The notes under the pieces were generated by a model. The model was not told the origin of the DNA and did not search any database. It saw nothing but the letters and a program-made list of their open reading frames with translations. From TPA_inf: Saccharomyces (Eukaryota), in NCBI GenBank assembly GCA_000146045.2, contig BK006949.2:800001-864000 (forward strand): a DNA stretch of 64,000 nt. The letters are read 5' to 3'. The stretch's first letter is position 1. Every line of letters starts with the position of its first letter. A program made the position numbers and the translations under genes. This document shows, piece by piece, positions 4,645 to 56,554 of the stretch.

Positions 4645-4978
4645 TGAGAAATGGGTGAATGTTGAGATAATTGTTGGGATTCCATTGTTGATAAAGGCTA
4701 TAATATTAGGTATACAGAATATACTAGAAGTTCTCCTCAAGGATTTAGGAATCCATAAAAGGGAATCTGCAATTCTACACAATTCTATAAATATTATTAT
4801 CATCATTTTATATGTTTATATTCATTGATCCTATTACATTATCAATCCTTGCGTTTCAGCTTCCACTAATTTAGATGACTATTTCTCATCATTTGCGTCA
4901 TCTTCTAACACCGTATATGATAATATACTAGTAATGTAAATACTAGTTAGTAGATGATAGTTGATTTCTATTCCAACA
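4645..4978 (-). repeat. 3' LTR (delta, Ty1-H3-type U3) of Ty1 copy 1
   Basis: 334 bp, identical to the 10229-10562 copy. Ends with the canonical TGTTGG...TCTCA termini in element orientation. Confidence 0.95.
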
Positions 4979-5000
4979 TACCACCCATAATGTAATAGAT

Positions 5001-8000
5001 CTAATGAATCCATTTGTTAGTTAATAGTTTAAATGTTTTTATCGGAAGAGGTTTTGTCATCACATCAGCAATGTTCTTCTTGGTCTCGATGTAGTATACG
5101 TATAGATTATTACCTGATACTTCATCTCTAAGTCTCATTGCCTTTGTGCCAAAAAATCTGTTTCTAAATTTCTCTTCATTTGTAGACTTAATTATACTGA
5201 TCGTTGATCTACTATCAGTAAGTAAGCCTTTAATAATTGGTTTCTTGTTAAGTTCTTGCACAAGGTGACTGAGGTTATTCAATAGCGGAATAGCTTCACT
5301 GACTGCGTGTATTTCTGCTTCTGTAGTTGAAGTGCATGTTAACGAAGCCTTTGTCGACTTTCCTCCAATCACTTTTCCGTTGAGTAGGAAAATGTTACCA
5401 ATTTGTGACTTGTAATATGGTTGGTTACCATATGAAGCATCGCTTATTGCGACTAGTTTATTATCTGGCTCGGTAGGTTTGTTTTTGTGCCATATCAGTT
5501 GTTTATCTCTAGTGTCCCACATGAATTGTATTAACTCATATGTCATGTCTAAAACTTGCCTAGAGGGGAATAGTATATGTTGAGCAAGTGTGTTGATGTA
5601 GTATAGTAAGTCAAATCTAAATTTATATCCAACATATGAAGCTAGACCAATCAACTTTTGCATTTCATGTACCTTCTCTTTGTATTCATCTTCATCTATT
5701 TCTAGTTCATCCTGGTCTATATAAAGACCTGGTTGACCTGGAGCGCTAAGTTTTCTTCCTTTTGGATTCAAAGGTACGTTTAATTTGGGTATTTTCTCAG
5801 TTAATGAGTTTTCCATACCTAATTTCATGTATTTACCTCTTTGATATTTGATTTCTAAGCCAAGTATGTCGTACTGAATTTCGTTATCACTTTCACCCAG
5901 ATTTATTATCTTTGTATCGTATTGTTTCTTGAGTGTTGTTATGATTTTCTTATTTGCATTTAAGTCTTTGCTGAACAATATCATATCATCAACGAATAAG
6001 CAAATTGTTACTTGACTATTCTTAAATACGCATGACCATCCACGAACTTCTTCCATACCACACTGTTTTATCAGGTATGATTTGATAGTTTCGTACCAGT
6101 TCGCTCCACTTTGTTTCAATCCATAATGTGATTTCTTCAAACGTATCAACTTATCATTCATTCCTAAATGTGGTGGAGGTCTTATGTATAATTCTTCTTT
6201 GATGTCTGCATACAAATATGCCGAAGATATGTCTAATTGTGTAATATAGTAGTTATTGTCTAATGCAAGTGACAGGGATGTCATCAACGCATAATGATGT
6301 ACAGTGTTGGATTGCATACCTGTATCGTACGTATCAGGATGCTGAATGTCACCTCTTGCAACAAATCTAGCTTTATGAGTTCCGTCACGTTTCTTGTTGA
6401 AGATAAACATTGAGTTTATTACTCTTTTAGGGTCTATTTCTTTTCTGTCATAATATTTGTCAGTGTCCCAAGTATTCATTTTCAATAGTTGGTTGACTTC
6501 TTTGTGGTATGCCTCGATATATTTTTCTTTTTCTTTAATATCTTTATTATAGGTGATTGCCTCATCGTATCGTAAGGTTGTCCGTATTGGTTTGATTGAT
6601 TTTACTGCTTTTACAGCTGCAATCAGGTGAATTCGTTTCTTCGATCTCGGAGGTTCTAAACTACGCATATTCTTAGTATTCCATGTGTCTCGTGATACCT
6701 TAATTTCAGTTTCATTATCTTCTAATGATCTTTTCTTACTGTTGATAGTAGTATAGGCATTAGAGTCACCAATACCACCCAAACTGGAATTAGTTTGATG
6801 AGAATTTATCGGTGGGAGTTCTTTAAATGGGTCAGGGAATTCGGTAGGAGATTCTGGAGGTAGATCAGGGAGTGGGAGATCAGCGATGATAGATTCCTCG
6901 GTATTCTGTTCAGAAACAGTAGTTGGCGTTTTGATAGGAACAATATTGTGCGATGAATTATTTTCCGGTGGAGAAGCATCGATTGAAGGTGAACGGTGTA
7001 TAATCCTTTTCTCAGTCTCTTGGTCACTTATCTGCGGAACAGTTTTGTTGTTGGTACCACCCGTACTGGATATTGGTACGTTTGTATGATTAGTCTCATT
7101 TTCACTGTACGAGTCTGAGTGTCTGAAATCTTTAGATTTACTGGCGTGCGACGACTCATGTGTGTTAGATTGGGACATGGGAGCAAGTAAAGGAACATTT
7201 AATTTATGCATACCACCCGAACCGGTACTCTCGATATTGGAAATTTGGGGGGTGCTAGATCTCTTCTTTGATGGAAGAATATTAGATTCAGATATGTTGG
7301 GGTCAACTTCTCTGGGTGCGCGAATATTGGTTTTAGAAACACGTTTCGAATCTTCAGTATGAGTTGACGGAGGTGTGGAATCGGTTGGACTCACAGCTTT
7401 TGAAAGGACATTTCTCGGTTGCTCAGGATGTAGTTCAATGTCGGATTGGAAGTCATGGTCAGATTCTATGTTAAGATCATTGGATTCTTGGATCTCATTT
7501 GACGCAATGAACGAATGATATGAAGCAGTTAAACGGTTTAAGTCTTCATCGAAAGTGAGTGCGTCGTAATTGAATTGATCTAATCTGGATTCCTTGCCCT
7601 GAAGAATAACATAGTTAGTTGTATCTACTGTCTTCTTTAAGGATGGAAGATAGATGATATATCCATAAGAGTTTCGAGACGGATGTAGAGCGTAGCCTGG
7701 GATGCCACGAGGATGTATTTTGGAGTTAGGGTTGTGATCATTGACGATAACAGGTTGACCGAAAGGTAACAAAGTACTGATATCAAGTCCTGCCAAGCCA
7801 GCATGTTGTCTTGCAGATTTTTTGCTTTTAGGTGAAGCTAGTGAATTTCTCACAATAGTAGAAAATTCGATTGCAGAGAACCATAAATGGTTCGGTAAAC
7901 CACTACATTGCAGTTGAGTACGGCAGTCATCTAATAAGGTACGGTTTAGCCGTTCAGCGACTCCATGTGCTCGGGAATCCGCTGTGGTTGTATAGCATGG

Positions 8001-8963
8001 AGTTATACCATTTTTTTCAAGGAATTTATGGAGAGTTCTGTTAGTATACTCAGAACCACGGTCCATTTGTATAACCAAGACACTGGCCTGAAACTGGTTT
8101 TTAATAAAAGCTAGTATCGTAGTAAAAACATCGAGGATAGAGTCCTCGCGACGGTCGTGTAATGGATAAACCCAACGGAATTTTGTTGTCTCATCAGTAA
8201 ATGAGATGAAATAGGATGGTGCACTTTTTGGTAGGTTGTGAACTGGACCAAATATGTCAGTATGTAGGTATTGAAAGGGTTCGTATGAATTTTGGTATTT
8301 TAGTCGTGAACCTTTGATATGTCTGTGTTTGGTGCTTTTGCCGATTAAACAATCAGGACATTGATAGTCAATAGCACTAGACCAGTCGACATCTGATTCG
8401 TTAAAATACGTGATGGTGTTATTTTTAAGTGAGTATCGAATTGTCTGTGCATTGGCATGCGCAAGCATTCGATGAATGAAAGGATAAGGATATTTGCGTG
8501 TACTTTCACTTGTATGGACATTATTGATGGTGGGTACGGAGATATTTGATGGAAGCAAGTACTTTTTAGATACCCAGTAAAAGTCTCCATATTTTACGAT
8601 AGGTGCAAGTACAGTGCCGTCAGACCGTTCTAAGACGTTTTTGGTAAAGCATGCTGTGATATCTACTGCAGCCAATTCATTCAAACTGAGTAAGTCATAG
8701 GCTATGTTAGGAGTGTGCAATACCTTTATTGATGTTTTGGTGTTGTCCTGGAAGTGAAATTGTAGGTCACCAATAGCGTTAATTGGTATATTTCTTTTTT
8801 GAGCATCAACTACGTTTATGTCAGGATTAGATGATGCTGAGTGTATGTGATGAGCAGATCTTATAAGGGTTCGTGATGCTCCTGAATCGAGAAGGAGGTG
8901 TCCAGGGAGTTCATCATCAGAATGATTAGTATGATTTACTGTAGATTCAGTAAGTTTCTGGCC
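5001..8963 (-). CDS. TYB: TYB (Pol: protease, integrase, RT, RNase H) of Ty1 copy 1, expressed as a Gag-Pol fusion by +1 frameshift at CTT-AGG-C
   Basis: Open frame of 1321 codons from GGC (8963-8961) to the stop at 5001. Retroviral integrase, RT and RNase H motifs (e.g. YVDDM-like [11 protein letters not shown]) are present. The 38-nt overlap with TYA is typical of Ty1. Confidence 0.9.
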
Positions 8964-10269
8964 TAAGATGAAGGTCGTGCTTATTGTTCAATTGAATCGG
9001 TTCAGTAGTTGATTTACTGATGGAATCGTTGTCCGTGCTGGGAGAGTTATTAGATGTGGATACATTGTGAGCCCTGGCTGTTTTCGATTTCGAATTATTT
9101 GTTTTTTGAGGATTCCGAGCTATAACTTTGGGTTTGGTTGTATTCGTATAGCTGCGAGAATCATTCTTCTCATCACTCGGATTTCTCCTGTAATTAGGTT
9201 TACTGTTTCTCGATCCCTGTTGTTCTTCATAAATAGCATGGATATCTAAGAACAGTTCAGCGACTGTCATATTTAGATGTCGATGACGTGTGTAGCGTAA
9301 AAATTTATATTCGCCAGATAGACCTCTCATAATTAATTGGCATGCGACCTTGTTATTGATATGAATGCCATTATTGTTCAGTCTGTCGATAATGTTTGTG
9401 ACTTTTGTTTCAAATGCATCTGCAGGTGTACTGCCATTATATTGCAAATTTGCCAGGGTCACAATGTCGTTTGCCTCTTGGGTATCAGATTGCATTTTTT
9501 CAATACTTTTGGAAAGAATTTTCATGATATCCGTATAATCAACGGATAGGATGTCTTTGACCCAGGTAGGTAGGAATTGAGAGGGAGCAAATATTTGAAA
9601 AGTGTTATACAAGAAGGTGAGTTCATCATCAGTGATCTGACGTACGGGTTTTCCGTTTACTGTCGGAATAATACCACCGAGATTCGAGTTTTGTAAAAAT
9701 TTGATGTATGTTTTAACCCAATTTGGAAAGTCATTAGGTGAGGTTAACATTGGTGGTGGTCTGACATATTTTTTAGTGGATGTCATATCAGAGTCCGCTG
9801 AGGATGAATCAGTAAATGTATTACCTGACTCAGGTGATGGAGTGCTCAGAGGCGTTCCAACTGATGATGGATACTGCGGAAACTGTGATTGTGGCCCAGG
9901 TGGAAAGTACATAGGCGACATTTGATAAGGTGTATACGGAATCATAGATGGGTGTCCGTAAAATGACCAACCAGATGGATTGGCTTGGTTTTGGGTCATC
10001 ATGCACTGCTGTGGGTACGGCCCATTCTGTGGTGAATGTGACTGAGCAGTTTGAGGAGAGGCATGATGGGGGTTCTCTGGAACAGCTGATGAAGCAGGTG
10101 TTGTTGTCTGTTGAGAGTTAGCCTTAGTGGAAGCCTTCTCACATTCTTCTGTTTTGGAAGCTGAAACGTCTAACGGATCTTGATTTGTGTGGACTTCCTT
10201 AGAAGTAACCGAAGCACAGGCGCTACCATGAGAAATGGGTGAATGTTGAGATAATTGTTGGGATTCCAT
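8947..10269 (-). CDS. TYA: TYA (Gag, 440 aa) of Ty1 copy 1
   Basis: The ATG lies inside the 5' LTR ([15 protein letters not shown]...), a canonical Ty1-H3-like Gag. It ends ...HLRPETY* with the frameshift heptamer 7 codons before the stop. Confidence 0.95.
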
Positions 10270-10562
10270 TGTTGATAAAGGCTATAATATTAGGTATACA
10301 GAATATACTAGAAGTTCTCCTCAAGGATTTAGGAATCCATAAAAGGGAATCTGCAATTCTACACAATTCTATAAATATTATTATCATCATTTTATATGTT
10401 TATATTCATTGATCCTATTACATTATCAATCCTTGCGTTTCAGCTTCCACTAATTTAGATGACTATTTCTCATCATTTGCGTCATCTTCTAACACCGTAT
10501 ATGATAATATACTAGTAATGTAAATACTAGTTAGTAGATGATAGTTGATTTCTATTCCAACA
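10229..10562 (-). repeat. 5' LTR (delta) of Ty1 copy 1
   Basis: Identical to the LTR at 4645-4978. Confidence 0.95.
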
Positions 10563-10675
10563 AATTATTCATCAAATACATCTCGATATCCATATTTTGG
10601 TTGCAAAGAAATAAATACCGGAGATATGATTCAGATGTGGAAGCGGTTTTAAAGTCCCAATTCATCATTATTTGC

Positions 10676-10749
10676 GACTCCATGGCCAAGTTGGTTAAGG
10701 CGTGCGACTGTTAATCGCAAGATCGTGAGTTCAACCCTCACTGGGGTCG
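10676..10749 (+). tRNA. tRNA-Asn (anticodon GUU)
   Basis: 74-nt sequence GACTCCATGGCCAAGTTGGTTAAGGCGTGCGACTGTTAATCGCAAGATCGTGAGTTCAACCCTCACTGGGGTCG with cloverleaf-compatible stems and an A box/B box (GGTTCAACC). An oligo-T terminator lies at 10753-10758. Confidence 0.93.
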
Positions 10750-10983
10750 TATTTTTTACTAAATTAGTTTTTTTTTAGGGAACAGACGTTAAGTTTTTTA
10801 ATATTATTATGGCATATAGAATGGTGAGTAAAAATACCAAATGATGAAATGAATTTGTTTTGTGAGTCTATGATAAAATGCAGAATATAAAATTAAAAAG
10901 TTCAGAAATAAATAAATAAAAAAAAATCTAGTATCGCGGCACTTCCGTTCAATGTGCCGACGAGCAGTTACTGGGGAGTTGAT

Positions 10984-12453
10984 TCATGCTTCTTTTGCGT
11001 GATGCAATTTAGGATTATTACTTTTTTCGTTTTGGCCGCTTACTGTAGCTGATGACAATGAGGAGTTTTGGCTGTCCTCAGTAGGATTTGTCTCAGACGC
11101 AGAATTAGCGCCATTGCATGTAGTATGAAGTGCATCTGTATCTACACCCCACTGGTAATAATCTCTCCTAACCTCCACGTAATCGTAAGCGAATTCGCCT
11201 ATTTGATCTTCATCCAACCCCAATGCTTCGGCTTCCTCAGTGACTCTTAGATGGACACCCGGAATTTTACCTAATACGAAGCAAATGATGGCCGTGACCA
11301 CAGCACAATAGCCGGCAGAGGCACCGATATAGGCAATTTGAATATACATTTGTTTCCAGTTATGCGTCAACCAACCACCCTTATGCTTTGTTGTGCCGTC
11401 CATTCCAATAACCCAATCAGCTGCAAATAGAGCGTTAAAAATCAATCCCACCACACCGGCGATACCGTGTTCAGCTAATAGATCTAAGGAATCATCCACT
11501 TTTAAATAATACTTTATTTTTGTTGCAAAATTACAAACAACACCCGCTATTATACCTTGGATCAAAGAGCCATATAGAGTAATACAACCCGAGCTAGGCG
11601 TGGCAGCAACTAAACCACAGATAATGCCGGAGCATAACCCAACAGTGGACCATTTTTTTTCAGATCGATAATCTAATAAACACCACGTCATTCCACCCGT
11701 GGTGGCGCTGAGACAAGTGTTCATGAACGCATATACGGACCTCATATTTGGTGACAGTGAGCTTGCAGCATTGAAAAGCAACCAACCAAACCAAAGTATA
11801 GAAGTACCCAAAGTCACCATGGAAACATTATGTGGTCTAAAGTTGATCAGGAGGTTTTCTTTTCTTCTTCCTAGAAAATAAGAATAAACGAAACCAGCCA
11901 CAGCACTTAGGATTTCAATATTCCCACCGCCAGCCCAGTCTAATACCCCCCATTGGTAGGCCCAACCACCTGGGGCCCAAATCCAATAAGTGATGGGACA
12001 GTAAACCAAAGTCGCAAAAACAAAAAGAAAAACCATATGTGGAAAAAGCTTACCTCTTTCCGCAGTGGCACCAGCTATAATACTCAATGCGACACACATG
12101 AACATCATTTGGAAAATGGCATAAATCAGTTCAGGATACGTGGAATCATCCGAAATTTTGCCATAGACGTTTCTAAACCCAAATGAATCCAAGTTGCCGA
12201 TAAATTTGTTGTTCGTCGCAGTCTTAGAGAATGCTAAAGAATAGCCCCAAAAATACCATTGCAGTATACCTACTAAGGTAGCCATTATCACTACCCAAAT
12301 CAAAGCCAGAGCAGATTTTCTTCTTGCTAAACCGGAATAAAGAAAGCCCAGCCCCGGTACCATGAAGAAAACCAGGGCGGCACCTAAAATCATAAAAGCG
12401 ACTGTGGAACTATCATATGTCTCTGTCCATAGATGTCCGTCACCCCGAGCCAT
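10984..12453 (-). CDS. MEP3: Ammonium transporter, Amt/MEP family (489 aa)
   Basis: About 11 TM helices characteristic of the Amt/Mep family. The ORF-track start at 12480 is TTG; the first ATG is at 12453 (MARGDGHLW...), which gives 489 aa, matching MEP3. Confidence 0.85.
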   Translation of the reverse strand: MARGDGHLWTETYDSSTVAFMILGAALVFFMVPGLGFLYSGLARRKSALALIWVVIMATLVGILQWYFWGYSLAFSKTATNNKFIGNLDSFGFRNVYGKISDDSTYPELIYAIFQMMFMCVALSIIAGATAERGKLFPHMVFLFVFATLVYCPITYWIWAPGGWAYQWGVLDWAGGGNIEILSAVAGFVYSYFLGRRKENLLINFRPHNVSMVTLGTSILWFGWLLFNAASSLSPNMRSVYAFMNTCLSATTGGMTWCLLDYRSEKKWSTVGLCSGIICGLVAATPSSGCITLYGSLIQGIIAGVVCNFATKIKYYLKVDDSLDLLAEHGIAGVVGLIFNALFAADWVIGMDGTTKHKGGWLTHNWKQMYIQIAYIGASAGYCAVVTAIICFVLGKIPGVHLRVTEEAEALGLDEDQIGEFAYDYVEVRRDYYQWGVDTDALHTTCNGANSASETNPTEDSQNSSLSSATVSGQNEKSNNPKLHHAKEA

Positions 12454-12688
12454 GTGAACTCTAAATCTATATGTTTTCAATTGTATCTTCTAAAAAAAAA
12501 ATGCCTTCGCTTTTTACAAAACAATTTCAAAAGTGATTGGACCCTTAACTAGCCTGCATTGATTGTAATAGACAATCAAAGAACCAAAAGAGAGAAGAAG
12601 CGACCGAAAGAAGACGGCTATCAGACTCAAAGCACACAACCTTATTCTACAAGATAGGAAAGGGAGAAGATATCTATCAAATTGTTGC

Positions 12689-12948
12689 GATAAGATGCGA
12701 TAAGACAAGGAGAGGGAAAGTCCGTGCTGCATATCAGCATATCAAATCTGCTAAAACATATTAACTTAACATATATATATAATATATAAAGTATGCCATC
12801 GGGTACCTTAACTAAAAAGGGTCATAGCGTGGAAAGCGAGGAAAAACCTCGAGATGGAAAACCAGTTTATGGAAAACTTCAAAATAACTCGCCCGCCTTA
12901 TCGCGGGCAAACCAGCTACGAGAGATAAGGATTTGGCGCCGAGATAAG
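12689..12948. promoter_or_regulatory. Cluster of GATA-factor (Gln3/Gat1) core sites upstream of MEP3: GATAAG at 12689-12694, 12699-12704, 12924-12929 and 12943-12948, plus CTTATC at 12895-12900
   Basis: Five GATAAG/CTTATC motifs lie within about 260 bp, 240-500 bp upstream of the MEP3 ATG. MEP genes are nitrogen-catabolite-repression targets with GATAAG UAS elements. Confidence 0.5.
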
Positions 12949-13155
12949 GTGGAGATGTTTCTCCGCCGCGCGGCACTTTTTGCCGGAACTGGAACTGGTT
13001 TGAGGTAGGTCAAGAAAGTGTCAGTAAATAGGAGTGACAGAAACGGGCACATCTACTCTTCTTTTTCTTGTTTGTTTCGATTAAATGCAATACATACTCC
13101 TAAAGACATATATATATAAATATGTATGCATGCATGCATGCCTTCATAAGTATTT

Positions 13156-14058: not shown

Positions 14059-14390
14059 TACTTTTCTTGTATTTTGTCACCTCGTAGGAGCTACTTCTTT
14101 CACGCCAGGATCTGACAGTATTTCTATTACGTTACTCCAGTCACGTTGAGAAAAGGCTTCATCTTTTTCTTTTTTCTTGAGATAACTTTTTTCTTCTACC
14201 TTCACTCAGACCGAGATATCGGACCTCAAACATAGCGTTTTTTTTTGTAAAACACTTAAGGATGGAGGAACATGTATGCTGAGTAATTCCAGCAGAAACC
14301 ATTTACTGAGAGCCTCATCTTTTGTTAAAAAATTTGTTTAATAAAATATTTCATTTTCAAAAAAAAAAAAAGTAAAGTTTTCCCTATCAA

Positions 14391-15536: not shown

Positions 15537-15733
15537 AATTTAAGCAATTAAATTCGTGTAAATACTAGCATGTATGAGGTCATTTTTACATAACAAATAT
15601 TCATTACTTACTTTGCTTTTTATCTGTGCGCATTAAAATGAGTTTCATATATAATATAGTTACATGTGATGAATGTATGGACAGTCTCTGTCATTTGTCA
15701 AAGGAGTGAAAAAGACCAGAAAAGGCCTTGACC

Positions 15734-19075: not shown

Positions 19076-19528
19076 TCAACATGTTCATGTCAAAAGAAGA
19101 AAAAAAATAAAGAAATAAAAACTGTATATTATTTAGTCTATGTCAAGCGAGAAAGGGGCCCTATATCTTCCCTCCTCCTTGCAATTGAATTTTGTTTGCA
19201 TTCTATATTATCATATAGTTTCATATCAATTGCAAAAACTTTTGCAGCCAATGTTACAAAATTGTTTTCAATCAAAGAAATACAGGTGTGGTGTCCTTCA
19301 CCATCGATATATTAATATTAATATATCATGAATAAATATAAAAATTCAAGGTAATGTACTTGTGCACTTCTTTTAGAATATAGCAATTTCCCTTAGCTCT
19401 TTTTCAAATTGTAATTCTCTACAATACATAAAAAGAAATTGATCTTTGGTTCAACTTTATATATCGCAATAAGCAATTCTCAACATTATGAAAGTTTATC
19501 TAAATTAAACAATCTTCAACAATAGAAT

Positions 19529-19602
19529 GGTCTCTTGGCCCAGTTGGTTAAGGCACCGTGCTAATAACGCGGGGATCAGCGGTTCGATCCCGCTAGAGAC
19601 CA
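19529..19602 (+). tRNA. tRNA-Ile (anticodon AAU)
   Basis: 74-nt sequence GGTCTCTTGGCCCAGTTGGTTAAGGCACCGTGCTAATAACGCGGGGATCAGCGGTTCGATCCCGCTAGAGACCA. The acceptor stem GGTCTCT/AGAGACC pairs, the B box is GGTTCGATCC, and a T-run follows. Confidence 0.93.
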
Positions 19603-19764
19603 TTTATTTTTGACCCAGGTTTTTTTCCTAGGCAAAATTGATAACAGGGACTTACTATTTTCTATTTTTTTTTTTTTTTACATCTCAAACAAGGGAAATC
19701 GATGACTCTGTTGATATAAATGTATATATACACACTTTTAAAACTTCGTTGTTCATCTTCGCTT

Positions 19765-44020: not shown

Positions 44021-44349
44021 GAAATACGGGCTACGGAATTTACCGTGTGTCTTCAAATTGAGTGTCACCCTGTAAGGCTTTCTACTCTATCACAAAATAT
44101 TACATATTCTAATTCTACAATTATAGATATCAAACTTGATAAATTTAGTAGCAAATATGAAGTATTATTATGCATTTCAAAAAATTCCATTGTCCCTTCT
44201 CTTGGGCGCTTGAATTCTAAAAAAAATTAGCGCATCGCTAATAGCGCGTTTGAACCCGTCTTAAGAATGTTCATACCAGTATCAACAAGGGGTATGTTCC
44301 TCAGCATTATCTGAAGGTACTCCTCTAAATTTTTAAGTAAGAAAAGGCG

Positions 44350-44411
44350 TATAGTCATATAATTGTTGGGAATCCACCACTGATAAAGGTTATAATATCA
44401 GGTAAAGAAAT
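44350..44411 (-). repeat. Left part of an old, diverged solo delta (minus orientation) split by the Ty1 copy 2 insertion; the right part is 50341-50512
   Basis: ...ataattgttgggaatccaccactgataaaggttataatatcaggtaaagaaat aligns to the + strand reading of the LTR end TGAGATAATTGTTGGGATTCCATTGTTGATAAAGGCTATAATATTAGGTATACAGAA. The left boundary is approximate. Confidence 0.55.
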
Positions 44412-44749
44412 TGTTGGAATAAAAATCCACTATCGTCTATCAACTAATAGTTATATTATCAATATATTATCATATACGGTGTTAAGATGATGACATAAGT
44501 TATGAGAAGCTGTCATCGATGTTAGAGGAAGCTGAAACGCAAGGATTGATAATGTAATAGGATCAATGAATATAAACATATAAAACGGAATGAGGAATAA
44601 TCGTAATATTAGTATGTAGAAATATAGATTCCATTTTGAGGATTCCTATATCCTCGAGGAGAACTTCTAGTATATTCTGTATACCTAATATTATAGCCTT
44701 TATCAACAATGGAATCCCAACAATTATCTAATTACCCACATATATCTCA
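44412..44749 (+). repeat. 5' LTR of Ty1 copy 2 (338 bp; U3 variant distinct from copy 1)
   Basis: TGTTGGAATAAAAATCCACTATCG...ATATATCTCA. Identical to the 50003-50340 copy. Confidence 0.93.
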
Positions 44750-46031
44750 TGGTAGCGCCTGTGCTTCGGTTACTTCTAAGGAAGTCCACACAAATCAAGA
44801 TCCGTTAGACGTTTCAGCTTCCAAAATTCAAGAATATGATAAGGCTTCCACTAAGGCTAACTCTCAACAGACAACAACACCTGCTTCATCAGCTGTTCCA
44901 GAGAACCCCCATCATGCCTCTCCTCAACCTGCTTCAGTACCACCTCCACAGAATGGGCCGTACCCACAGCAGTGCATGATGACCCAAAACCAAGCCAATC
45001 CATCTGGTTGGTCATTTTACGGACACCCATCTATGATTCCGTATACACCTTATCAAATGTCGCCTATGTACTTTCCACCTGGGCCACAATCACAGTTTCC
45101 GCAGTATCCATCATCAGTTGGAACGCCTCTGAGCACTCCATCACCTGAGTCAGGTAATACATTTACTGATTCATCCTCAGCGGACTCTGATATGACATCC
45201 ACTAAAAAATATGTCAGACCACCACCAATGTTAACCTCACCTAATGACTTTCCAAATTGGGTTAAAACATACATCAAATTTTTACAAAACTCGAATCTCG
45301 GTGGTATTATTCCGACAGTAAACGGAAAACCCGTACGTCCGATCACTGATGATGAACTCACCTTCTTGTATAACACTTTTCAAATATTTGCTCCCTCTCA
45401 ATTCCTACCTACCTGGGTCAAAGACATCCTATCCGTTGATTATACGGATATCATGAAAATTCTTTCCAAAAGTATTGAAAAAATGCAATCTGATACCCAA
45501 GAGGCAAACGACATTGTGACCCTGGCAAATTTGCAATATAATGGCAGTACACCTGCAGATGCATTTGAAACAAAAGTCACAAACATTATCGACAGACTGA
45601 ACAATAATGGCATTCATATCAATAACAAGGTCGCATGTCAATTAATTATGAGAGGTCTATCTGGCGAATATAAATTTTTACGCTACACACGTCATCGACA
45701 TCTAAATATGACAGTCGCTGAACTGTTCTTAGATATCCATGCTATTTATGAAGAACAACAGGGATCGAGAAACAGCAAACCTAATTACAGGAGAAATCCG
45801 AGTGATGAGAAGAATGATTCTCGCAGCTATACGAATACAACCAAACCCAAAGTTATAGCTCGGAATCCTCAAAAAACAAATAATTCGAAATCGAAAACAG
45901 CCAGGGCTCACAATGTATCCACATCTAATAACTCTCCCAGCACGGACAACGATTCCATCAGTAAATCAACTACTGAACCGATTCAATTGAACAATAAGCA
46001 CGACCTTCATCTTAGGCCAGAAACTTACTGA
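44709..46031 (+). CDS. TYA: TYA (Gag, 440 aa) of Ty1 copy 2
   Basis: [15 protein letters not shown]... Ty1-type Gag. The stop TGA is at 46029-46031. Confidence 0.93.
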
Positions 46032-49000
46032 ATCTACAGTAAATCATACTAATCATTCTGATGATGAACTCCCTGGACACCTCCTTCTCGATTCAGGAGC
46101 ATCACGAACCCTTATAAGATCTGCTCATCACATACACTCAGCATCATCTAATCCTGACATAAACGTAGTTGATGCTCAAAAAAGAAATATACCAATTAAC
46201 GCTATTGGTGACCTACAATTTCACTTCCAGGACAACACCAAAACATCAATAAAGGTATTGCACACTCCTAACATAGCCTATGACTTACTCAGTTTGAATG
46301 AATTGGCTGCAGTAGATATCACAGCATGCTTTACCAAAAACGTCTTAGAACGGTCTGACGGCACTGTACTTGCACCTATCGTAAAATATGGAGACTTTTA
46401 CTGGGTATCTAAAAAGTACTTGCTTCCATCAAATATCTCCGTACCCACCATCAATAATGTCCATACAAGTGAAAGTACACGCAAATATCCTTATCCTTTC
46501 ATTCATCGAATGCTTGCGCATGCCAATGCACAGACAATTCGATACTCACTTAAAAATAACACCATCACGTATTTTAACGAATCAGATGTCGACTGGTCTA
46601 GTGCTATTGACTATCAATGTCCTGATTGTTTAATCGGCAAAAGCACCAAACACAGACATATCAAAGGTTCACGACTAAAATACCAAAATTCATACGAACC
46701 CTTTCAATACCTACATACTGACATATTTGGTCCAGTTCACAACCTACCAAAAAGTGCACCATCCTATTTCATCTCATTTACTGATGAGACAACAAAATTC
46801 CGTTGGGTTTATCCATTACACGACCGTCGCGAGGACTCTATCCTCGATGTTTTTACTACGATACTAGCTTTTATTAAAAACCAGTTTCAGGCCAGTGTCT
46901 TGGTTATACAAATGGACCGTGGTTCTGAGTATACTAACAGAACTCTCCATAAATTCCTTGAAAAAAAAAATGGTATAACTCCATGCTATACAACCACAGC
47001 GGATTCCCGAGCACATGGAGTCGCTGAACGGCTAAACCGTACCTTATTAGATGACTGCCGTACTCAACTGCAATGTAGTGGTTTACCGAACCATTTATGG
47101 TTCTCTGCAATCGAATTTTCTACTATTGTGAGAAATTCACTAGCTTCACCTAAAAGCAAAAAATCTGCAAGACAACATGCTGGCTTGGCAGGACTTGATA
47201 TCAGTACTTTGTTACCTTTCGGTCAACCTGTTATCGTCAATGATCACAACCCTAACTCCAAAATACATCCTCGTGGCATCCCAGGCTACGCTCTACATCC
47301 GTCTCGAAACTCTTATGGATATATCATCTATCTTCCATCCTTAAAGAAGACAGTAGATACAACTAACTATGTTATTCTTCAGGGCAAGGAATCCAGATTA
47401 GATCAATTCAATTACGACGCACTCACTTTCGATGAAGACTTAAACCGTTTAACTGCTTCATATCATTCGTTCATTGCGTCAAATGAGATCCAAGAATCCA
47501 ATGATCTTAACATAGAATCTGACCATGACTTCCAATCCGACATTGAACTACATCCTGAGCAACCGAGAAATGTCCTTTCAAAAGCTGTGAGTCCAACCGA
47601 TTCCACACCTCCGTCAACTCATACTGAAGATTCGAAACGTGTTTCTAAAACCAATATTCGCGCACCCAGAGAAGTTGACCCCAACATATCTGAATCTAAT
47701 ATTCTTCCATCAAAGAAGAGATCTAGCACCCCCCAAATTTCCAATATCGAGAGTACCGGTTCGGGTGGTATGCATAAATTAAATGTTCCTTTACTTGCTC
47801 CCATGTCCCAATCTAACACACATGAGTCGTCGCACGCCAGTAAATCTAAAGATTTCAGACACTCAGACTCGTACAGTGAAAATGAGACTAATCATACAAA
47901 CGTACCAATATCCAGTACGGGTGGTACCAACAACAAAACTGTTCCGCAGATAAGTGACCAAGAGACTGAGAAAAGGATTATACACCGTTCACCTTCAATC
48001 GATGCTTCTCCACCGGAAAATAATTCATCGCACAATATTGTTCCTATCAAAACGCCAACTACTGTTTCTGAACAGAATACCGAGGAATCTATCATCGCTG
48101 ATCTCCCACTCCCTGATCTACCTCCAGAATCTCCTACCGAATTCCCTGACCCATTTAAAGAACTCCCACCGATAAATTCTCATCAAACTAATTCCAGTTT
48201 GGGTGGTATTGGTGACTCTAATGCCTATACTACTATCAACAGTAAGAAAAGATCATTAGAAGATAATGAAACTGAAATTAAGGTATCACGAGACACATGG
48301 AATACTAAGAATATGCGTAGTTTAGAACCTCCGAGATCGAAGAAACGAATTCACCTGATTGCAGCTGTAAAAGCAGTAAAATCAATCAAACCAATACGGA
48401 CAACCTTAAGATACGATGAGGCAATCACCTATAATAAAGATATTAAAGAAAAGGAAAAATATATCGAAGCATACCACAAAGAAGTCAACCAACTATTGAA
48501 AATGAATACTTGGGACACTGACAAATATTATGACAGAAAAGAAATAGACCCTAAAAGAGTAATAAATTCAATGTTTATCTTCAACAGGAAACGTGACGGT
48601 ACTCATAAAGCTAGATTTGTTGCAAGAGGTGATATTCAGCATCCTGACACTTACGACTCAGGCATGCAATCCAATACCGTACATCACTATGCATTAATGA
48701 CATCCCTGTCACTTGCATTAGACAATAACTACTATATTACACAATTAGACATATCTTCGGCATATTTGTATGCAGACATCAAAGAAGAATTATACATAAG
48801 ACCTCCACCACATTTAGGAATGAATGATAAGTTGATACGTTTGAAGAAATCACTTTATGGATTGAAACAAAGTGGAGCGAACTGGTACGAAACTATCAAA
48901 TCATACCTGATAAAACAGTGTGGTATGGAAGAAGTTCGTGGATGGTCATGCGTATTTAAGAATAGTCAAGTAACAATTTGCTTATTCGTTGATGATATGA

Positions 49001-49980
49001 TATTGTTCAGCAAAGACTTAAATGCAAATAAGAAAATCATAACAACACTCAAGAAACAATACGATACAAAGATAATAAATCTGGGTGAAAGTGATAACGA
49101 AATTCAGTACGACATACTTGGCTTAGAAATCAAATATCAAAGAGGTAAATACATGAAATTAGGTATGGAAAACTCATTAACTGAGAAAATACCCAAATTA
49201 AACGTACCTTTGAATCCAAAAGGAAGAAAACTTAGCGCTCCAGGTCAACCAGGTCTTTATATAGACCAGGATGAACTAGAAATAGATGAAGATGAATACA
49301 AAGAGAAGGTACATGAAATGCAAAAGTTGATTGGTCTAGCTTCATATGTTGGATATAAATTTAGATTTGACTTACTATACTACATCAACACACTTGCTCA
49401 ACATATACTATTCCCCTCTAGGCAAGTTTTAGACATGACATATGAGTTAATACAATTCATGTGGGACACTAGAGATAAACAACTGATATGGCACAAAAAC
49501 AAACCTACCGAGCCAGATAATAAACTAGTCGCAATAAGTGATGCTTCATATGGTAACCAACCATATTACAAGTCACAAATTGGCAACATATATTTACTTA
49601 ATGGAAAGGTAATTGGAGGAAAGTCCACCAAGGCTTCATTAACATGTACTTCAACTACGGAAGCAGAAATACACGCGATAAGTGAATCTGTCCCATTATT
49701 AAATAACCTCAGTCACCTTGTGCAAGAACTTAACAAGAAACCAATTACTAAAGGATTACTAACCGACAGTAAATCTACAATCAGTATAATTATATCCAAT
49801 AATGAAGAGAAATTTAGAAACAGATTTTTTGGTACTAAAGCAATGAGACTAAGAGATGAAGTATCAGGAAATCATCTGCACGTATGCTATATCGAAACCA
49901 AAAAGAATATTGCAGACGTAATGACCAAACCTCTTCCGATAAAAACATTCAAACTATTAACAAACAAATGGATTCATTAG
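46015..49980 (+). CDS. TYB: TYB (Pol) of Ty1 copy 2 via +1 frameshift at CTTAGGC (46011-46017)
   Basis: 1322-codon open frame from GGC at 46015 to the stop at 49978-49980. The ORF-track 1240-aa segment starts at an internal Met. Confidence 0.9.
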
Positions 49981-50002
49981 ATCTATTACATTATGGGTGG
50001 TA

Positions 50003-50340
50003 TGTTGGAATAAAAATCCACTATCGTCTATCAACTAATAGTTATATTATCAATATATTATCATATACGGTGTTAAGATGATGACATAAGTTATGAGAAG
50101 CTGTCATCGATGTTAGAGGAAGCTGAAACGCAAGGATTGATAATGTAATAGGATCAATGAATATAAACATATAAAACGGAATGAGGAATAATCGTAATAT
50201 TAGTATGTAGAAATATAGATTCCATTTTGAGGATTCCTATATCCTCGAGGAGAACTTCTAGTATATTCTGTATACCTAATATTATAGCCTTTATCAACAA
50301 TGGAATCCCAACAATTATCTAATTACCCACATATATCTCA
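50003..50340 (+). repeat. 3' LTR of Ty1 copy 2
   Basis: Identical to the 5' LTR. Confidence 0.93.
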
Positions 50341-50512
50341 GAAATTTTACTAGAAGTTCATTATCCTATTACTTATCAATCCTTGCATTTCAGCTTTCAT
50401 TAAATGTGCTCACTGTTTCTCAATCTTTATGCCATATTTTTGCACCGTATACGATAACATGCAAATAGTACGAATACTAATCGATATGTGATGGTTGATT
50501 CTTATTCCAACA
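50341..50512 (-). repeat. Right part of the old diverged solo delta (minus orientation) into which Ty1 copy 2 inserted
   Basis: gaaattttactagaagttcattatcctattacttatcaatccttgcatttcagc...ttattccaaca. Delta-like but about 15-20% diverged. It starts with the TSD copy GAAAT. Confidence 0.6.
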
Positions 50513-50613
50513 ATTATCTTGAACTTCAATCAACTCTCGCAGTTGTCACGTGCAATTTGATACATGTCGCGTTGATATACAAGTACTAAATACGGTACAC
50601 AATGGATTATTTC

Positions 50614-50628
50614 TGTTGTATCTCAAAA
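50614..50628 (+). repeat. First 15 bp of a Ty3 sigma LTR (TGTTGTATCTCAAAA), separated from the rest of the sigma (56555-56885) by the Ty1 copy 3 insertion
   Basis: Joining 50614-50628 to 56560 onward reconstitutes the sigma 5' end TGTTGTATCTCAAAATGAGATATGTCAG. CAAAA is duplicated at both Ty1 flanks. Confidence 0.8.
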
Positions 50629-50966
50629 TGAGAAATGGGTGAATGTTGAGATAATTGTTGGGATTCCATTGTTGATAAAGGCTATAATATTAGGTATACA
50701 GAATATACTAGAAGTTCTCCTCGAGGATATAGGAATCCTCAAAATGGAATCTATATTTCTACATACTAATATTACGATTATTCCTCATTCCGTTTTATAT
50801 GTTTATATTCATTGATCCTATTACATTATCAATCCTTGCGTTTCAGCTTCCTCTAACATCGATGACAGCTTCTCATAACTTATGTCATCATCTTAACACC
50901 GTATATGATAATATATTGATAATATAACTATTAGTTGATAGACGATAGTGGATTTTTATTCCAACA
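50629..50966 (-). repeat. 3' LTR of Ty1 copy 3
   Basis: 338 bp, reading TGAGAAATGG...TTCCAACA on the + strand. Same U3 family as the copy 2 LTRs. Confidence 0.93.
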
Positions 50967-50988
50967 TACCACCCATAATGTAATAGAT

Positions 50989-53900
50989 CTAATGAATCCA
51001 TTTGTTTGTTAATAGTTTGAATGTTTTTATCGGAAGAGGTTTGGTCATTACGTCTGCAATATTCTTTTTGGTTTCGATATAGCATACGTGCAGATGATTT
51101 CCTGATACTTCATCTCTTAGTCTCATTGCTTTAGTACCAAAAAATCTGTTTCTAAATTTCTCTTCATTATTGGATATAATTATACTGATTGTAGATTTAC
51201 TGTCGGTTAGTAATCCTTTAGTAATTGGTTTCTTGTTAAGTTCTTGCACAAGGTGACTGAGGTTATTTAATAATGGGACAGATTCACTTATCGCGTGTAT
51301 TTCTGCTTCCGTAGTTGAAGTACATGTTAATGAAGCCTTGGTGGACTTTCCTCCAATTACCTTTCCATTAAGTAAATATATGTTGCCAATTTGTGACTTG
51401 TAATATGGTTGGTTACCATACGAAGCATCACTTATTGCGACTAGTTTATTATCTGGCTCGGTAGGTTTGTTTTTGTGCCATATCAGTTGTTTATCTCTAG
51501 TGTCCCACATGAATTGTATCAACTCATATGTCATGTCTAAAACTTGCCTAGAGGGGAATAGTATATGTTGAGCAAGTGTGTTGATGTAGTATAGTAAGTC
51601 AAATCTAAATTTATATCCAACATATGAAGCTAGACCAATCAACTTTTGCATTTCATGTACCTTCTCTTTGTATTCATCTTCATCTATTTCTAGTTCATCC
51701 TGGTCTATATAAAGACCTGGTTGACCTGGAGCGCTAAGTTTTCTTCCTTTTGGATTCAAAGGTACGTTTAATTTGGGTATTTTCTCAGTTAATGAGTTTT
51801 CCATACCTAATTTCATGTATTTACCTCTTTGATATTTGATTTCTAAGCCAAGTATGTCGTACTGAATTTCGTTATCACTTTCACCCAGATTTATTATCTT
51901 TGTATCGTATTGTTTCTTGAGTGTTGTTATGATTTTCTTATTTGCATTTAAGTCTTTGCTGAACAATATCATATCATCAACGAATAAGCAAATTGTTACT
52001 TGACTATTCTTAAATACGCATGACCATCCACGAACTTCTTCCATACCACACTGTTTTATCAGGTATGATTTGATAGTTTCGTACCAGTTCGCTCCACTTT
52101 GTTTCAATCCATAATGTGATTTCTTCAAACGTATCAACTTATCATTCATTCCTAAATGTGGTGGAGGTCTTATGTATAATTCTTCTTTGATGTCTGCATA
52201 CAAATATGCCGAAGATATGTCTAATTGTGTAATATAGTAGTTATTGTCTAATGCAAGTGACAGGGATGTCATCAACGCATAATGATGTACAGTGTTGGAT
52301 TGCATACCTGTATCGTACGTATCAGGATGCTGAATGTCACCTCTTGCAACAAATCTAGCTTTATGAGTTCCGTCACGTTTCTTGTTGAAGATAAACATTG
52401 AATTTATTACTCTTTTGGGGTCTATTTCTTTTCTGTCATAATATCTGTCAGTGTCCCAAGTTTTCATCTTCAACAGTTGGTTGACTTCTTTGTGGTATGC
52501 TTCGATATATTTTTCTTTTTCTTTAATATCTTTATTATAGGTGATTGCCTCATCGTATCGTAAGGTTGTTCGTATTGGTTTGATTGATTTTACTGCTTTT
52601 ACAGCTGCAATCAGGTGAATTCGTTTCTTCGATCTCGGAGGTTCTAAACTACGCATATTCTTAGTATTCCATGTGTCTCGTGATACCTTAATTTCAGTTT
52701 CATTATCTTCTAATGATCTTTTCTTACTGTTGATAGTAGTATAGGCATTAGAGTCACCAATACCACCCAAACTGGAATTAGTTTGACGAGAATTGATCGG
52801 TGGAAGTTCTTTAAAGGAGTCTGATAATTCGGTAGGAGGTTCTGGAGGCGGATCGGGAAGTGGGAGATCAGCGATAATAGATTCCTCGGTATTCTGTTCA
52901 GAAACAGTAGTTGGCGTTTTGATAGGAACAATATTGTGCGATGAATTATTTTCCGGTGGAGAAGCATCGATTGAAGGTGAACGGTGTATAATCCTTTTCT
53001 CAGTCTCCTGGTCGCTTATCTGCGGAACAGTTTTGTTGTTGGTACCACCCGTACTGGATATTGGTACGTTTGTATGATTAGTCTCATTGTTACTGTACGA
53101 GTCTGAGTGTCTGAAATCTTTAGATTTACTGGCGTGCGACGACTCATGTGTGTTAGATTGGGACATGGGAGCAAGTAAAGGAACATTTAATTTATGCATA
53201 CCACCCGAACCGGTACTCTCGATATTGGAAATTTGGGGGGTGCTAGATCTCTTCTTTGATGGAAGAATATTAGATTCAGATATGTTGGGGTCAACTTCTC
53301 TGGGTGCACGAAGATTGATTTCAGATATAGGTTTTGAATCTTCAGTATGAGTTGACGGAGGTGTGGAATCGGTTGGACTCACAGCTTTTGAAAGGACATT
53401 TCTCGGTTGCTCAGGATGTAGTTCAATGTCAGATTGGAAGTCATGGTCAGATTCTATGTTAAGATCATTGGATTCTTGGATCTCATTTGACGCAATGAAC
53501 GAATGATATGAAGCAGTTAAACGGTTTAAGTCTTCATCGAAAGTGAGTGCGTCGTAATTGAATTGATCTAATCTGGATTCCTTGCCCTGAAGAATAACAT
53601 AGTTAGTTGTATCTACTGTCTTCTTTAAGGATGGAAGATAGATGATATATCCATAAGAGTTTCGAGACGGATGTAGAGCGTAACCTGGGATGCCACGAGG
53701 ATGTATTTTGGAGTTAGGGTTGTGATCATTGACGATAACAGGTTGACCGAAAGGTAACAAAGTACTGATATCAAGTCCTGCCAAGCCAGCATGTTGGCTT
53801 GCAGATTTTTTGCTTTTAGGTGAAGCTAGTGAATTTCTCACAATAGTAGAAAATTCGATTGCAGAGAACCATAAATGGTTCGGTAAACCACTACATTGCA

Positions 53901-54951
53901 GTTGAGTACGGCAGTCATCTAATAAGGTACGGTTGAGCCGTTCAGCGACTCCATGTGCTCGGGAATCCGCTGTGGTTGTATAGCATGGAGTTATACCATT
54001 TTTTTCAAGGAATTTATGGAGAGTTCTGTTAGTATACTCAGAACCACGGTCCATTTGTATAACCAAGACACTGGCCTGAAATTGGTTTTTAATGAAAGCT
54101 AGTATCGTGGTAAATACATCGAGGATAGAGTCCTCGCGACGGTCGTGCAATGGATAAACCCAACGGAATTTTGTTGTCTCATCAGTAAATGAGATGAAAT
54201 AGGATGGTGCACTTTTTGGTAGGTTGTGAACTGGACCAAATATGTCAGTATGTAGGTATTGAAAGGGTTCGTATGAATTTTGGTATTTTAGTCGTGAACC
54301 TTTGATATGTCTGTGTTTGGTGCTTTTGCCGATTAAACAATCAGGACATTGATAGTCAATAGCACTAGACCAGTCGACATCTGATTCGTTAAAATACGTG
54401 ATGGTGTTATTTTTAAGTGAGTATCGAATTGTCTGTGCATTGGCATGCGCAAGCATTCGATGAATGAAAGGATAAGGATATTTGCGTGTACTTTCACTTG
54501 TATGGACATTATTGATGGTGGGTACGGAGATATTTGATGGAAGCAAGTACCTTTTAGATACCCAGTAAAAGTCTCCATATTGTACGATAGGTGCAAGTAC
54601 AGTGCCGTCAGATCGTTCTAAGACGTTTTTGGTAAAGCATGCTGTGATATCTACTGCAGCCAATTCATTCAAACTGAGTAAGTCATAGGCTATGTTAGGA
54701 GTGTGCAATACCTTTATTGATGTTTTGGTGTTGTCCTGGAAGTGAAATTGTAGGTCACCAATAGCGTTAATTGGTATATTTCTTTTTTGAGCATCAACTA
54801 CGTTTATGTCAGGATTAGATGATGCTGAGTGTATGTGATGAGCAGATCTTATAAGGGTTCGTGATGCTCCTGAATCGAGAAGGAGGTGTCCAGGGAGTTC
54901 ATCATCAGAATGATTAGTGTGATTTACCGTAGATTCAGTAAGTTCCTGGCC
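50989..54951 (-). CDS. TYB: TYB (Pol) of Ty1 copy 3 via +1 frameshift
   Basis: 1321-codon open frame from GGC (54951-54949) to the stop at 50989. The integrase C-terminal variable region (…[13 protein letters not shown]…[14 protein letters not shown]…) differs from copies 1 and 2. Confidence 0.9.
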
Positions 54952-56257
54952 TAAGGTGAAGGTCGTGCTTATTGTTCAATTGAATCGGTTCAGTAGTTGA
55001 TTTACTGATGGAATCGTTGTCCGTGCTGGGAGAGTTATTAGATGTGGATACATTGTGAGCCCTGGCTGTTTTCGATTTCGAATTATTTGTTTTTTGAGGA
55101 TTCCGAGCTATAACTTTGGGTTTGGTTGTATTCGTATAGCTGCGAGAATCATTCTTCTCATCACTCAGATTTCTCCTGTAATTAGGTTTGCTGTTTCTCG
55201 ATCCCTGTTGTTCTTCATAAATAGCATGGATATCTAAGAACAGTTCAGCGACTGTCATATTTAGATGTCGATGACGTGTGTAGCGTAAAAATTTATATTC
55301 GCCAGATAGACCTCTCATAATTAATTGGCATGCGACCTTGTTATTGATATGAATGCCATTATTGTTCAGTCTGTCGATAATGTTTGTGACTTTTGTTTCA
55401 AATGCATCTGCAGGTGTACTGCCATTATATTGCAAATTTGCCAGGGTCACAATGTCGTTTGCCTCTTGGGTATCAGATTGCATTTTTTCAATACTTTTGG
55501 AAAGAATTTTCATGATATCCGTATAATCAACGGATAGGATGTCTTTGACCCAGGTAGGTAGGAATTGAGAGGGAGCAAATATTTGAAAAGTGTTATACAA
55601 GAAGGTGAGTTCATCATCAGTGATCTGACGTACGGGTTTTCCGTTTACTGTCGGAATAATACCACCGAGATTCGAGTTTTGTAAAAATTTGATGTATGTT
55701 TTAACCCAATTTGGAAAGTCATTAGGTGAGGTTAACATTGGTGGTGGTCTGACATATTTTTTAGTGGATGTCATATCAGAGTCTGCTGAGGATGAATCAG
55801 TAAATGTATTACCTGACTCAGGTGATGGAGTGCTCAGAGGCGTTCCAACTGATGATGGATACTGCGGAAACTGTGATTGTGGCCCAGGTGGAAAGTACAT
55901 AGGCGACATTTGATAAGGTGTATACGGAATCATAGATGGGTGTCCGTAAAATGACCAACCAGATGGATTGGCTTGGTTTTGGGTCATCATGCACTGCTGT
56001 GGGTACGGCCCATTCTGTGGAGGTGGTACTGAAGCAGGTTGAGGAGAGGCATGATGGGGGTTCTCTGGAACAGCTGATGAAGCAGGTGTTGTTGTCTGTT
56101 GAGAGTTAGCCTTAGTAGAAGCCTTCTCACATTCTTCTGTTTTGGAAGCTGAAACGTCTAACGGATCTTGATTTGTGTGGACTTCCTTAGAAGTAACCGA
56201 AGCACAGGCGCTACCATGAGAAATGGGTGAATAATTAGATAATTGTTGGGATTCCAT
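54935..56257 (-). CDS. TYA: TYA (Gag, 440 aa) of Ty1 copy 3
   Basis: [15 protein letters not shown]... ending ...HLRPGTY*. Confidence 0.93.
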
Positions 56258-56554
56258 TGTTGATAAAGGCTATAATATTAGGTATACAGAATATACTAGA
56301 AGTTCTCCTCGAGGATATAGGAATCCTCAAAATGGAATCTATATTTCTACATACTAATATTACGATTATTCCTCATTCCGTTTTATATGTTTATATTCAT
56401 TGATCCTATTACATTATCAATCCTTGCGTTTCAGCTTCCTCTAACATCGATGACAGCTTCTCATAACTTATGTCATCATCTTAACACCGTATATGATAAT
56501 ATATTGATAATATAACTATTAGTTGATAGACGATAGTGGATTTTTATTCCAACA
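56217..56554 (-). repeat. 5' LTR of Ty1 copy 3
   Basis: 338 bp. Contains the TYA ATG. Confidence 0.93.

Follow-up and report, generated by a model that had tools for sequence, protein, structure and literature searches.

How do three full-length Ty1 retrotransposons that lie in one stretch of yeast DNA come to agree in some segments and to differ sharply in others? The question is raised by a window of 64,000 nucleotides of Saccharomyces (assembly GCA_000146045.2, contig BK006949.2, positions 800,001 to 864,000; coordinates below count from the first letter of this window). The window holds copy 1 at 4645-10562 on the minus strand (5918 bp), copy 2 at 44412-50340 on the plus strand (5929 bp), and copy 3 at 50629-56554 on the minus strand (5926 bp). 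A first-pass annotation of this DNA had placed the elements at exactly these boundaries and had described them as mosaics of each other, made by recombination. The three copies are indeed segmental mosaics, and segmental copies of this kind require recombination. The phrase "of each other" proved too narrow, as the alleles are shared with many other elements. We give a probability of about 80% to the reading that recombination during reverse transcription was the main source of the mosaics, with a shared pool of canonical Ty1, Ty1′ and Ty2 blocks assorted mainly before insertion.

The three copies were aligned with MAFFT in a three-way alignment, and each variable column was classed by the copy that stood apart from the other two. 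Pairwise identity was 96.4% for copies 1 and 2, 96.2% for copies 1 and 3, and 98.5% for copies 2 and 3. The 264 variable columns fell into only 20 runs, compared to a permutation mean of 136.6 (standard deviation 6.2; z = -18.9) and a minimum of 111 in 20,000 shuffles. The chi-square test for a uniform spread of the pairwise differences returned p values between 1e-11 and 5e-85. Uniform divergence along the elements, which the first-pass annotation had set against its own proposal, is clearly rejected by the alignment, the runs and the chi-square test alike, and there is more to the pattern than the three block types that had been picked out at first (the U3 of the long terminal repeat (LTR), the integrase C-terminus and the pol 3′ end).

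The block structure follows directly from this alignment. In element coordinates of copy 2, copy 1 is the odd copy in the U3 of both LTRs (11-244), in a gag patch of 10 sites (517-534), and over the pol 3′ end, the polypurine tract (PPT) and the U3 of the 3′ LTR (5173-5835, 105 sites). Copy 2 is odd in U5 and the leader (324-429), in the U5 of the 3′ LTR (5910-5924), and in a block of the reverse transcriptase (RT) (4176-4443). Copy 3 is odd in late gag, protease (PR) and integrase (IN) (1388-3988). The U5-leader block, the gag patch (20 bp) and the RT block (268 bp) are additional to the block types noticed earlier. For the integrase C-terminal block, the earlier observation that copy 2 equals copy 1 while copy 3 differs holds, but the region specific to copy 3 is wider than that block and takes up all of 1388-3988. 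The individual patches are short (20-110 nt). We considered them as tract lengths and rejected this, given the uninterrupted runs of a single pattern (e.g., 1388-3988). The long runs indicate that the short patches merely mark the places where the parental lineages differ.

Parentage of the blocks was read against a set of reference elements. The curated library sequences TY1-LTR, TY1-I, TY2-LTR and TY2-I were taken from the supplements of Czaja 2020 (PMC7055915). The sequence of Ty1-H3 (M18706) was transcribed from the alignment of the same study (S8 File), its 5918 nt being the published length. A protein database search with Gag-Pol returned four matches, after which we fetched the contigs of L001, a Ty2 element, and of L002, an element with Ty1′-type gag; both proteins are broken. 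L001 contains long-read indel errors, and gaps were ignored in the scoring of identity. Three further Ty2 loci (L003-L005) came from metagenome contigs that were scanned with the published primer for the primer-binding site (PBS) of Ty2-917. One of them, L004 (OGZV01003563.1, 686-6644), has a Ty2-type 5′ LTR but a Ty1 3′ LTR of the copy 2 type. A chimera of short-read assembly is the most likely explanation, the alternative being a real Ty2/Ty1 recombinant, and only the 5′ LTR and internal region of L004 were used.

Against these references, copy 1 is the element with Ty2 sequence at its ends. In its 5′ LTR (10229-10562, minus strand), the U3 (10323-10562) is of Ty2 type, with 4 mismatches to TY2-LTR and 49 to TY1-LTR, whereas the R-U5 (10229-10322) is of Ty1 type, with 2 mismatches to TY1-LTR and 17 to TY2-LTR. 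The 5′ LTRs of all four fetched Ty2 loci have a U3 of the copy 1 type. The 3′ LTR (4645-4978) is identical to the 5′ LTR, so that the same hybrid LTR is found at both ends, and this LTR is identical at 334/334 positions to the 3′ LTR of Ty1-H3, in agreement with the Ty1-H3 type that had been assigned to it. The Ty2 sequence continues into the coding region. The Ty2-derived tract in which copy 1 is odd relative to copies 2 and 3 lies at 4739-5442 on the minus strand; it comprises the pol 3′ end with the PPT (element nt 5121-5584) and the U3 of the 3′ LTR (nt 5585-5824), and it stops at the U3/R boundary. At the pol 3′ end (nt 5126-5584), copy 1 has the Ty2 allele at 55/55 diagnostic sites and is 99.6-99.8% identical to three Ty2 elements. 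The tract starts in pol, crosses the PPT and is unbroken up to the last Ty2-diagnostic site of U3, and the first Ty1-diagnostic site is located in R. The interval of the junction, LTR nt 235-259, brackets the first nucleotide of the RNA, which we placed at DNA nt 241 from the position of the PBS at DNA nt 335 (here) and at RNA nt 95 (PMC7969010). Judged by its sequence, copy 1 is a classical Ty1/Ty2 hybrid with a Ty2-U3/Ty1-R-U5 LTR, as in Ty1-H3. Among the three copies, it alone combines the Ty2 U3 and Ty1 R-U5 with a contiguous Ty2 pol 3′ end, the features of a hybrid in the sense of Jordan & McDonald.

The likeness of copy 1 to Ty1-H3 is extensive. They share the LTR type, the length of 5918 bp, the Ty1 gag and most of pol, and the Ty2 pol 3′ end, and they are the same over nt 535-3950 except for 2 differences. 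Yet they are different assemblies of blocks. Copy 1 has a non-Ty2 gag patch, the other allele at element nt 4169-4280, and Ty2-like sequence at 4536-4685, and its Ty2 pol tract begins approximately 150 nt further upstream (near nt 5136, compared to near nt 5290 in Ty1-H3). The two LTRs of Ty1-H3 themselves differ at six sites, five of which form a Ty1-type patch at nt 218-240, with the sixth at nt 328. This combination of blocks, together with the discordant LTRs, makes the laboratory reference element a mosaic different from all three copies of the window. Canonical Ty1 and Ty1-H3 have been described as having acquired LTR and pol segments from Ty2 (Czaja 2020, PMC7055915).

In U3, copies 2 and 3 are ordinary Ty1. 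The first-pass annotation had quoted two U3 strings, both of which are present as quoted, and had taken that of copies 2 and 3 for the Ty2 type and these copies for the Ty1/2 hybrids; the labels were inverted, as the hybrid by U3 and by the pol 3′ end is copy 1. The LTRs of copy 2 (44412-44749 and 50003-50340, plus strand) are 338 bp each and identical. Mismatches to TY1-LTR and TY2-LTR number 1 and 50, respectively, in the U3 of its 5′ LTR, and 6 and 18 in the R-U5. The LTRs of copy 3 are also 338 bp each. The U3 counts in both are again 1 and 50, and those of R-U5 are 5 and 19 in the 5′ LTR and 2 and 17 in the 3′ LTR. Compared with the curated library and the four Ty2 loci, neither copy has a hybrid LTR with a Ty2 U3. 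The eight peptides quoted in the annotation were all found in exactly the copies named for them. Copies 2 and 3 share the AISESVPLL version of the pol 3′ end, and copy 1 has a different one, AVSEAIPLL. This segment in copies 2 and 3 is 87.7% identical to Ty2 and 96% to L002, with 0-8 mismatches per 100 nt to TY1-I, and the published alignment (Czaja 2020) has 10 elements with this allele.

Each of these two copies has, in addition, blocks of its own. The U5-leader block of copy 2 is located at 44730-44840 on the plus strand, and its U5 allele recurs in the 3′ LTR (50321-50340). The "pure canonical" elements of strain DBVPG6044 share the leader patch, and their U5 is similar and not identical (ctaattacccacacatttctca compared to ctaattacccacatatatctca in copy 2). 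Counts in the published alignment are 19 LTRs for the U5 allele and 35 elements for the leader allele. The RT block of copy 2 (48587-48854, plus strand; element nt 4176-4443) equals L002 at 14/14 sites and is also the Ty1-H3 allele, while copies 1 and 3 share the other allele. The tract specific to copy 3 runs over 52570-55167 on the minus strand (element nt 1388-3985) through late gag, PR and IN, and its differences come in short clusters, including a 13-residue patch near 53298-53378 and a 14-residue patch within 52568-52958. The patch at nt 3600-3990 matches L002 at 13/15 sites, and the patch at nt 1590-1640 is L002-like as well. The 13-residue patch (nt 3223-3250) had no match in the fetched references; its allele is present in six elements of the published alignment, DBVPG6044 copies among them. 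Finally, the two LTRs of copy 3 disagree at three clustered U5 sites, LTR nt 319, 321 and 322 (56233-56236 in the 5′ LTR and 50645-50648 in the 3′ LTR, minus strand), where the 5′ LTR reads TAATTATT and the 3′ LTR reads TCAACATT. In the published alignment, another S288c element has the 5′ variant in its own 3′ LTR, so the variant is an imported allele and not a cluster of point mutations.

Two further blocks tie the copies to the wider family. In gag, copy 1 has the non-Ty2 "Ty1c1" version of a short patch (10033-10050, minus strand; element nt 513-530), with 10 differences in 18 nt relative to copies 2 and 3 and changes in 5 of 6 consecutive codons. Copy 2 (44928-44945, plus strand) has the 20-bp Ty2-like "Ty1c2" version, with the Ty2 allele at 10/10 sites and 100% identity to Ty2 over 26 nt; copy 3 has its equivalent at 56021-56038 on the minus strand, and Ty1-H3 also has the 20-bp Ty2 segment. 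This is without difference the published Ty1c1/Ty1c2 polymorphism of canonical Ty1, a 20-bp segment that divides the S288C elements 24 to 6 (Bleykasten-Grosshans 2021, PMC8476168). The second block, in the RT/ribonuclease H region, is Ty2-like in all three copies (5443-6027 on the minus strand in copy 1, 48954-49538 in copy 2, and 51431-52015 in copy 3). It consists of two Ty2-like parts, nt 4536-4685 and 4836-5120 of copy 1, with a Ty1-like stretch between them; the Ty2-like parts show 0-4 mismatches per 100 nt to TY2-I, compared to 7-24 to TY1-I. Across the two parts, the Ty1 allele is found in Ty1-H3 and/or L002, and at 4536-4685 in both. A four-gamete test of this block against U3 in complete elements was positive, the combinations being Ty2 with Ty2 in copy 1, Ty2 with Ty1 in copy 2, Ty1 with Ty2 in Ty1-H3, and Ty1 with Ty1 in L002.

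In spite of the Ty2 segments, the gag of the window copies is only about 61% identical to that of Ty2, and by gag and integrase they are Ty1 and not Ty2. None of the three has the Ty1′-type gag (8-15% diverged from canonical) that marks the Ty1′ subfamily: their gag is about 85.5% identical to that of L002 and essentially equals that of Ty1-H3. The matches to L002 at 4176-4443 in copy 2 and at 1590-1640 and 3600-3990 in copy 3, and the Ty1′-like U3 and pol 3′ end of both, resemble the recombinants of canonical Ty1 with Ty1′ described by Czaja 2020 (PMC7055915), with the difference that the window copies all have canonical gag and none is a Ty1′ element. Each block allele that we checked recurs in other members of the family, and thus the copies are not necessarily mosaics made from one another. 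By this sharing of alleles, they are samples of a recombining family, and the donors need not be these three.

The copies are otherwise complete elements. The boundaries, determined by a direct-repeat search and inspection of the ends, are flanked by 5-bp target-site duplications, AATTA for copy 1 (4640-4644 and 10563-10567), GAAAT for copy 2 (44407-44411 and 50341-50345), and CAAAA for copy 3 (50624-50628 and 56555-56559). All LTRs have the Ty1 form, 334-338 bp with TG...CA ends (TGTTGG...TCTCA). In each copy, the PBS for the initiator tRNA-Met, TGGTAGCGCC, is immediately 3′ of the 5′ LTR, and the PPT, GGGTGGTA, is immediately 5′ of the 3′ LTR. The Gag-Pol open reading frames (5001-10269 on the minus strand in copy 1, 44709-49980 on the plus strand in copy 2, and 50989-56257 on the minus strand in copy 3) are intact. 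In each, Gag (TYA) has 440 residues and Gag-Pol, reached by a +1 frameshift at CTTAGGC, has 1755 or 1756. The 1756 residues of copy 2 include one additional AAA (Lys) codon at 46961-46963, in an A-run of pol, relative to the 1755 of copies 1 and 3. Pfam domains were found on Gag-Pol at 17-400 (TYA), 459-533 (Pol_BBD), 663-763 (rve) and 1281-1487 (RVT_2), and the domain order is the copia type, PR-IN-RT, of the Ty1/copia elements (Pseudoviridae). The three copies have near-identical LTR pairs and are young, coding-competent Ty1 LTR retrotransposons. The pairs of copies 1 and 2, being 100% identical, mark these two as recent transposition products, and the intact duplications in all three indicate that no ectopic crossover took place.

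Ty1/Ty2 hybrid elements have reportedly been described by Kim et al. 1998 and by Jordan & McDonald 1998/1999. How would such a hybrid be made? Two RNAs are packaged in each Ty1 particle, and the reverse transcriptase switches between them. For copy 1, minus-strand strong-stop DNA would have been copied from the 5′ R-U5 of a Ty1 RNA and moved to the 3′ R of a co-packaged RNA whose 3′ end was of Ty2 type. From there, synthesis would have proceeded through the Ty2 U3 and the PPT into the end of pol and then switched once, back to a Ty1 template, and normal LTR formation would have duplicated the Ty2 U3 at both ends. One exchange at the RNA level, together with the obligatory strand transfer, predicts both the end of the Ty2 tract at U3/R and the same LTR at the two ends of copy 1. 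Copies 2 and 3 retained the Ty1 U3 and the Ty1 pol 3′ end and carry other imported patches. We infer that reverse transcription, and not chromosomal gene conversion, made most of the junctions. A template-switch origin of Ty1/2 hybrids was proposed by Jordan & McDonald 1998 (cited through PMC7055915 and PMC8476168), and in experiments new Ty1 insertions in S288C were observed to be mosaics that arose by recombination during reverse transcription (Bleykasten-Grosshans 2011, summarised in PMC6894440 and discussed in PMC8476168). The scheme is that of retroviral copy-choice, where a dimeric genome, strand transfers at R and internal switches likewise give mosaics with a duplicated U3. Ty1 differs in being intracellular, without an extracellular phase, and the exchange here is between two families, Ty1 and Ty2. 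Both the block types and the proposed mechanism have been published previously (Kim 1998; Jordan & McDonald 1998/1999; Bleykasten-Grosshans 2011/2021; Czaja 2020).

The principal rival is ectopic gene conversion after insertion, in which chromosomal Ty copies would have recombined homologously with each other or with Ty cDNA. Conversion between Ty copies is an established process (Roeder and Fink, as cited in PMC8476168; Ty-Ty conversion tracts are treated in PMC9879454), and several observations weigh against reverse transcription as the sole source. For the internal patches, a template switch and a conversion tract are indistinguishable from sequence alone. The discordance of the LTRs of copy 3 at three U5 sites is not produced by a simple reverse-transcription scheme, and at least one event must have followed another route, be it conversion after insertion, plus-strand transfer between molecules or a heteroduplex left unrepaired; a short imported tract fits best a variant that is confined to three clustered sites and exists elsewhere. 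Local conversion may also have acted between copies 2 and 3, which are adjacent and inverted and share a 1466-bp repeat with 2 mismatches across a 328-bp spacer. As a necessary explanation of their near-identical 3′ parts, such local conversion was rejected: the pol 3′ allele is carried by 10 elements and is not special to the adjacent pair. The direction of transfer, from Ty2 to Ty1 and not the reverse, was adopted from the literature. For copy 1, conversion fares worse, since two independent and matched tracts would be needed to place the same Ty2 U3 with the same junction in both LTRs, contiguous with the Ty2 pol 3′ end. The LTR pairs of copies 1 and 2 are, furthermore, 100% identical, and mosaics of this kind have been observed directly from reverse-transcription recombination (in the summary of PMC6894440). 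We therefore regard conversion as an unlikely general source of the mosaics. For the U5 of copy 3 it is the ordinary alternative to a bolder reading, that the discordant sites preserve the trace of a plus-strand strong-stop transfer between molecules, or of a heteroduplex that two cDNAs of the same particle formed by strand assimilation. We hold this bolder reading to be improbable; if true, natural Ty1 copies would record a replication step known otherwise from engineered assays alone.

Two other explanations dispense with exchange between elements. Hypervariable or selected regions could have diverged independently in each copy, and the differences do come in short clusters, some of them in the poorly conserved C-terminus of integrase. 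This is effectively refuted, with a probability that is negligible: the blocks are near-identical to existing alleles in Ty2, L002, Ty1-H3 and others (55/55, 48/50, 14/14 and 10/10 sites), all four allele combinations exist, and the identical LTR pairs leave almost no time for mutation since insertion. Alternatively, the assembly could have fused reads of different Ty copies into a chimeric consensus. Ty elements are repeats of about 6 kb, copies 2 and 3 are adjacent, and the metagenome contig L004 does look chimeric. Against such an artefact, which we consider very improbable, stand the intact reading frames, matched target-site duplications and concordant LTR pairs of all three copies. In the PacBio-based alignment of Czaja 2020, the allele strings specific to copy 3 that we tested (strings, not whole elements) co-occur with the leader single-nucleotide polymorphism of that copy, and the pol 3′ allele of copies 2 and 3 is the one present in 10 of its elements. 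The layout of the elements also agrees with independent descriptions by array and pulsed-field gel electrophoresis (PMC2712687). Reverse-transcription recombination within a shared pool of blocks thus remains our preferred account of the mosaics.

That layout places the copies on the minus, plus and minus strands, with a gap of 33.85 kb between copies 1 and 2, and with copies 2 and 3 as an inverted adjacent pair. The elements YPRCTy1-2, YPRWTy1-3 and YPRCTy1-4 of chromosome XVI have the same order, Crick-Watson-Crick, with about 34 kb from the first element to the inverted pair (PMC2712687). By layout, copies 1, 2 and 3 correspond to these three elements, respectively, on chromosome XVI-R of Saccharomyces cerevisiae S288C. 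Copies 2 and 3 are arranged tail to tail, the inverted repeat (48855-50320 and 50649-52114) being formed by the 3′ parts of both, and the spacer contains a degenerate delta remnant at 50357-50512. Inverted Ty pairs are known sites of chromosome rearrangement (PMC2712687).

All three copies lie within about 750 bp upstream of a gene transcribed by RNA polymerase III, the usual target zone of Ty1. The end of copy 1 is 113 bp upstream of tRNA-Asn(GTT) (10675-10750, plus strand), and that of copy 3 is 348 bp upstream of tRNA-Ala(AGC) (56902-56974, plus strand), from which copy 2 is about 636 bp upstream when copy 3 is discounted. Two further tRNA genes of the window, Ile(AAT) at 19528-19603 and Gly(GCC) at 60379-60449, have no full-length Ty adjoining them. 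Old, degenerate solo delta remnants are found at 4499-4644, 10563 to about 10600, and 44351-44411, and copies 1 and 2 were inserted into or beside them, which indicates that Ty1 repeatedly targets the same zones upstream of tRNA genes. Copy 3 is nested in a solo sigma, the LTR of Ty3 (50614-50628 and 56560-56885), at position 15 of the latter. This sigma is identical to the curated TY3-LTR at 338/340 positions. Its end is 16 nt upstream of tRNA-Ala (56902), at the position classically taken by Ty3.

These three copies open no new question; they are a textbook example of LTR retrotransposon families that evolve as populations with recombination among their members. Both regulatory blocks (U3) and coding blocks pass from one Ty1 lineage to another and between Ty1 and Ty2. 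The practical lesson for annotation is that the type of an LTR is no guide to the family of the internal region that it flanks; the LTR of Ty1-H3, which is in common use, is half Ty2.

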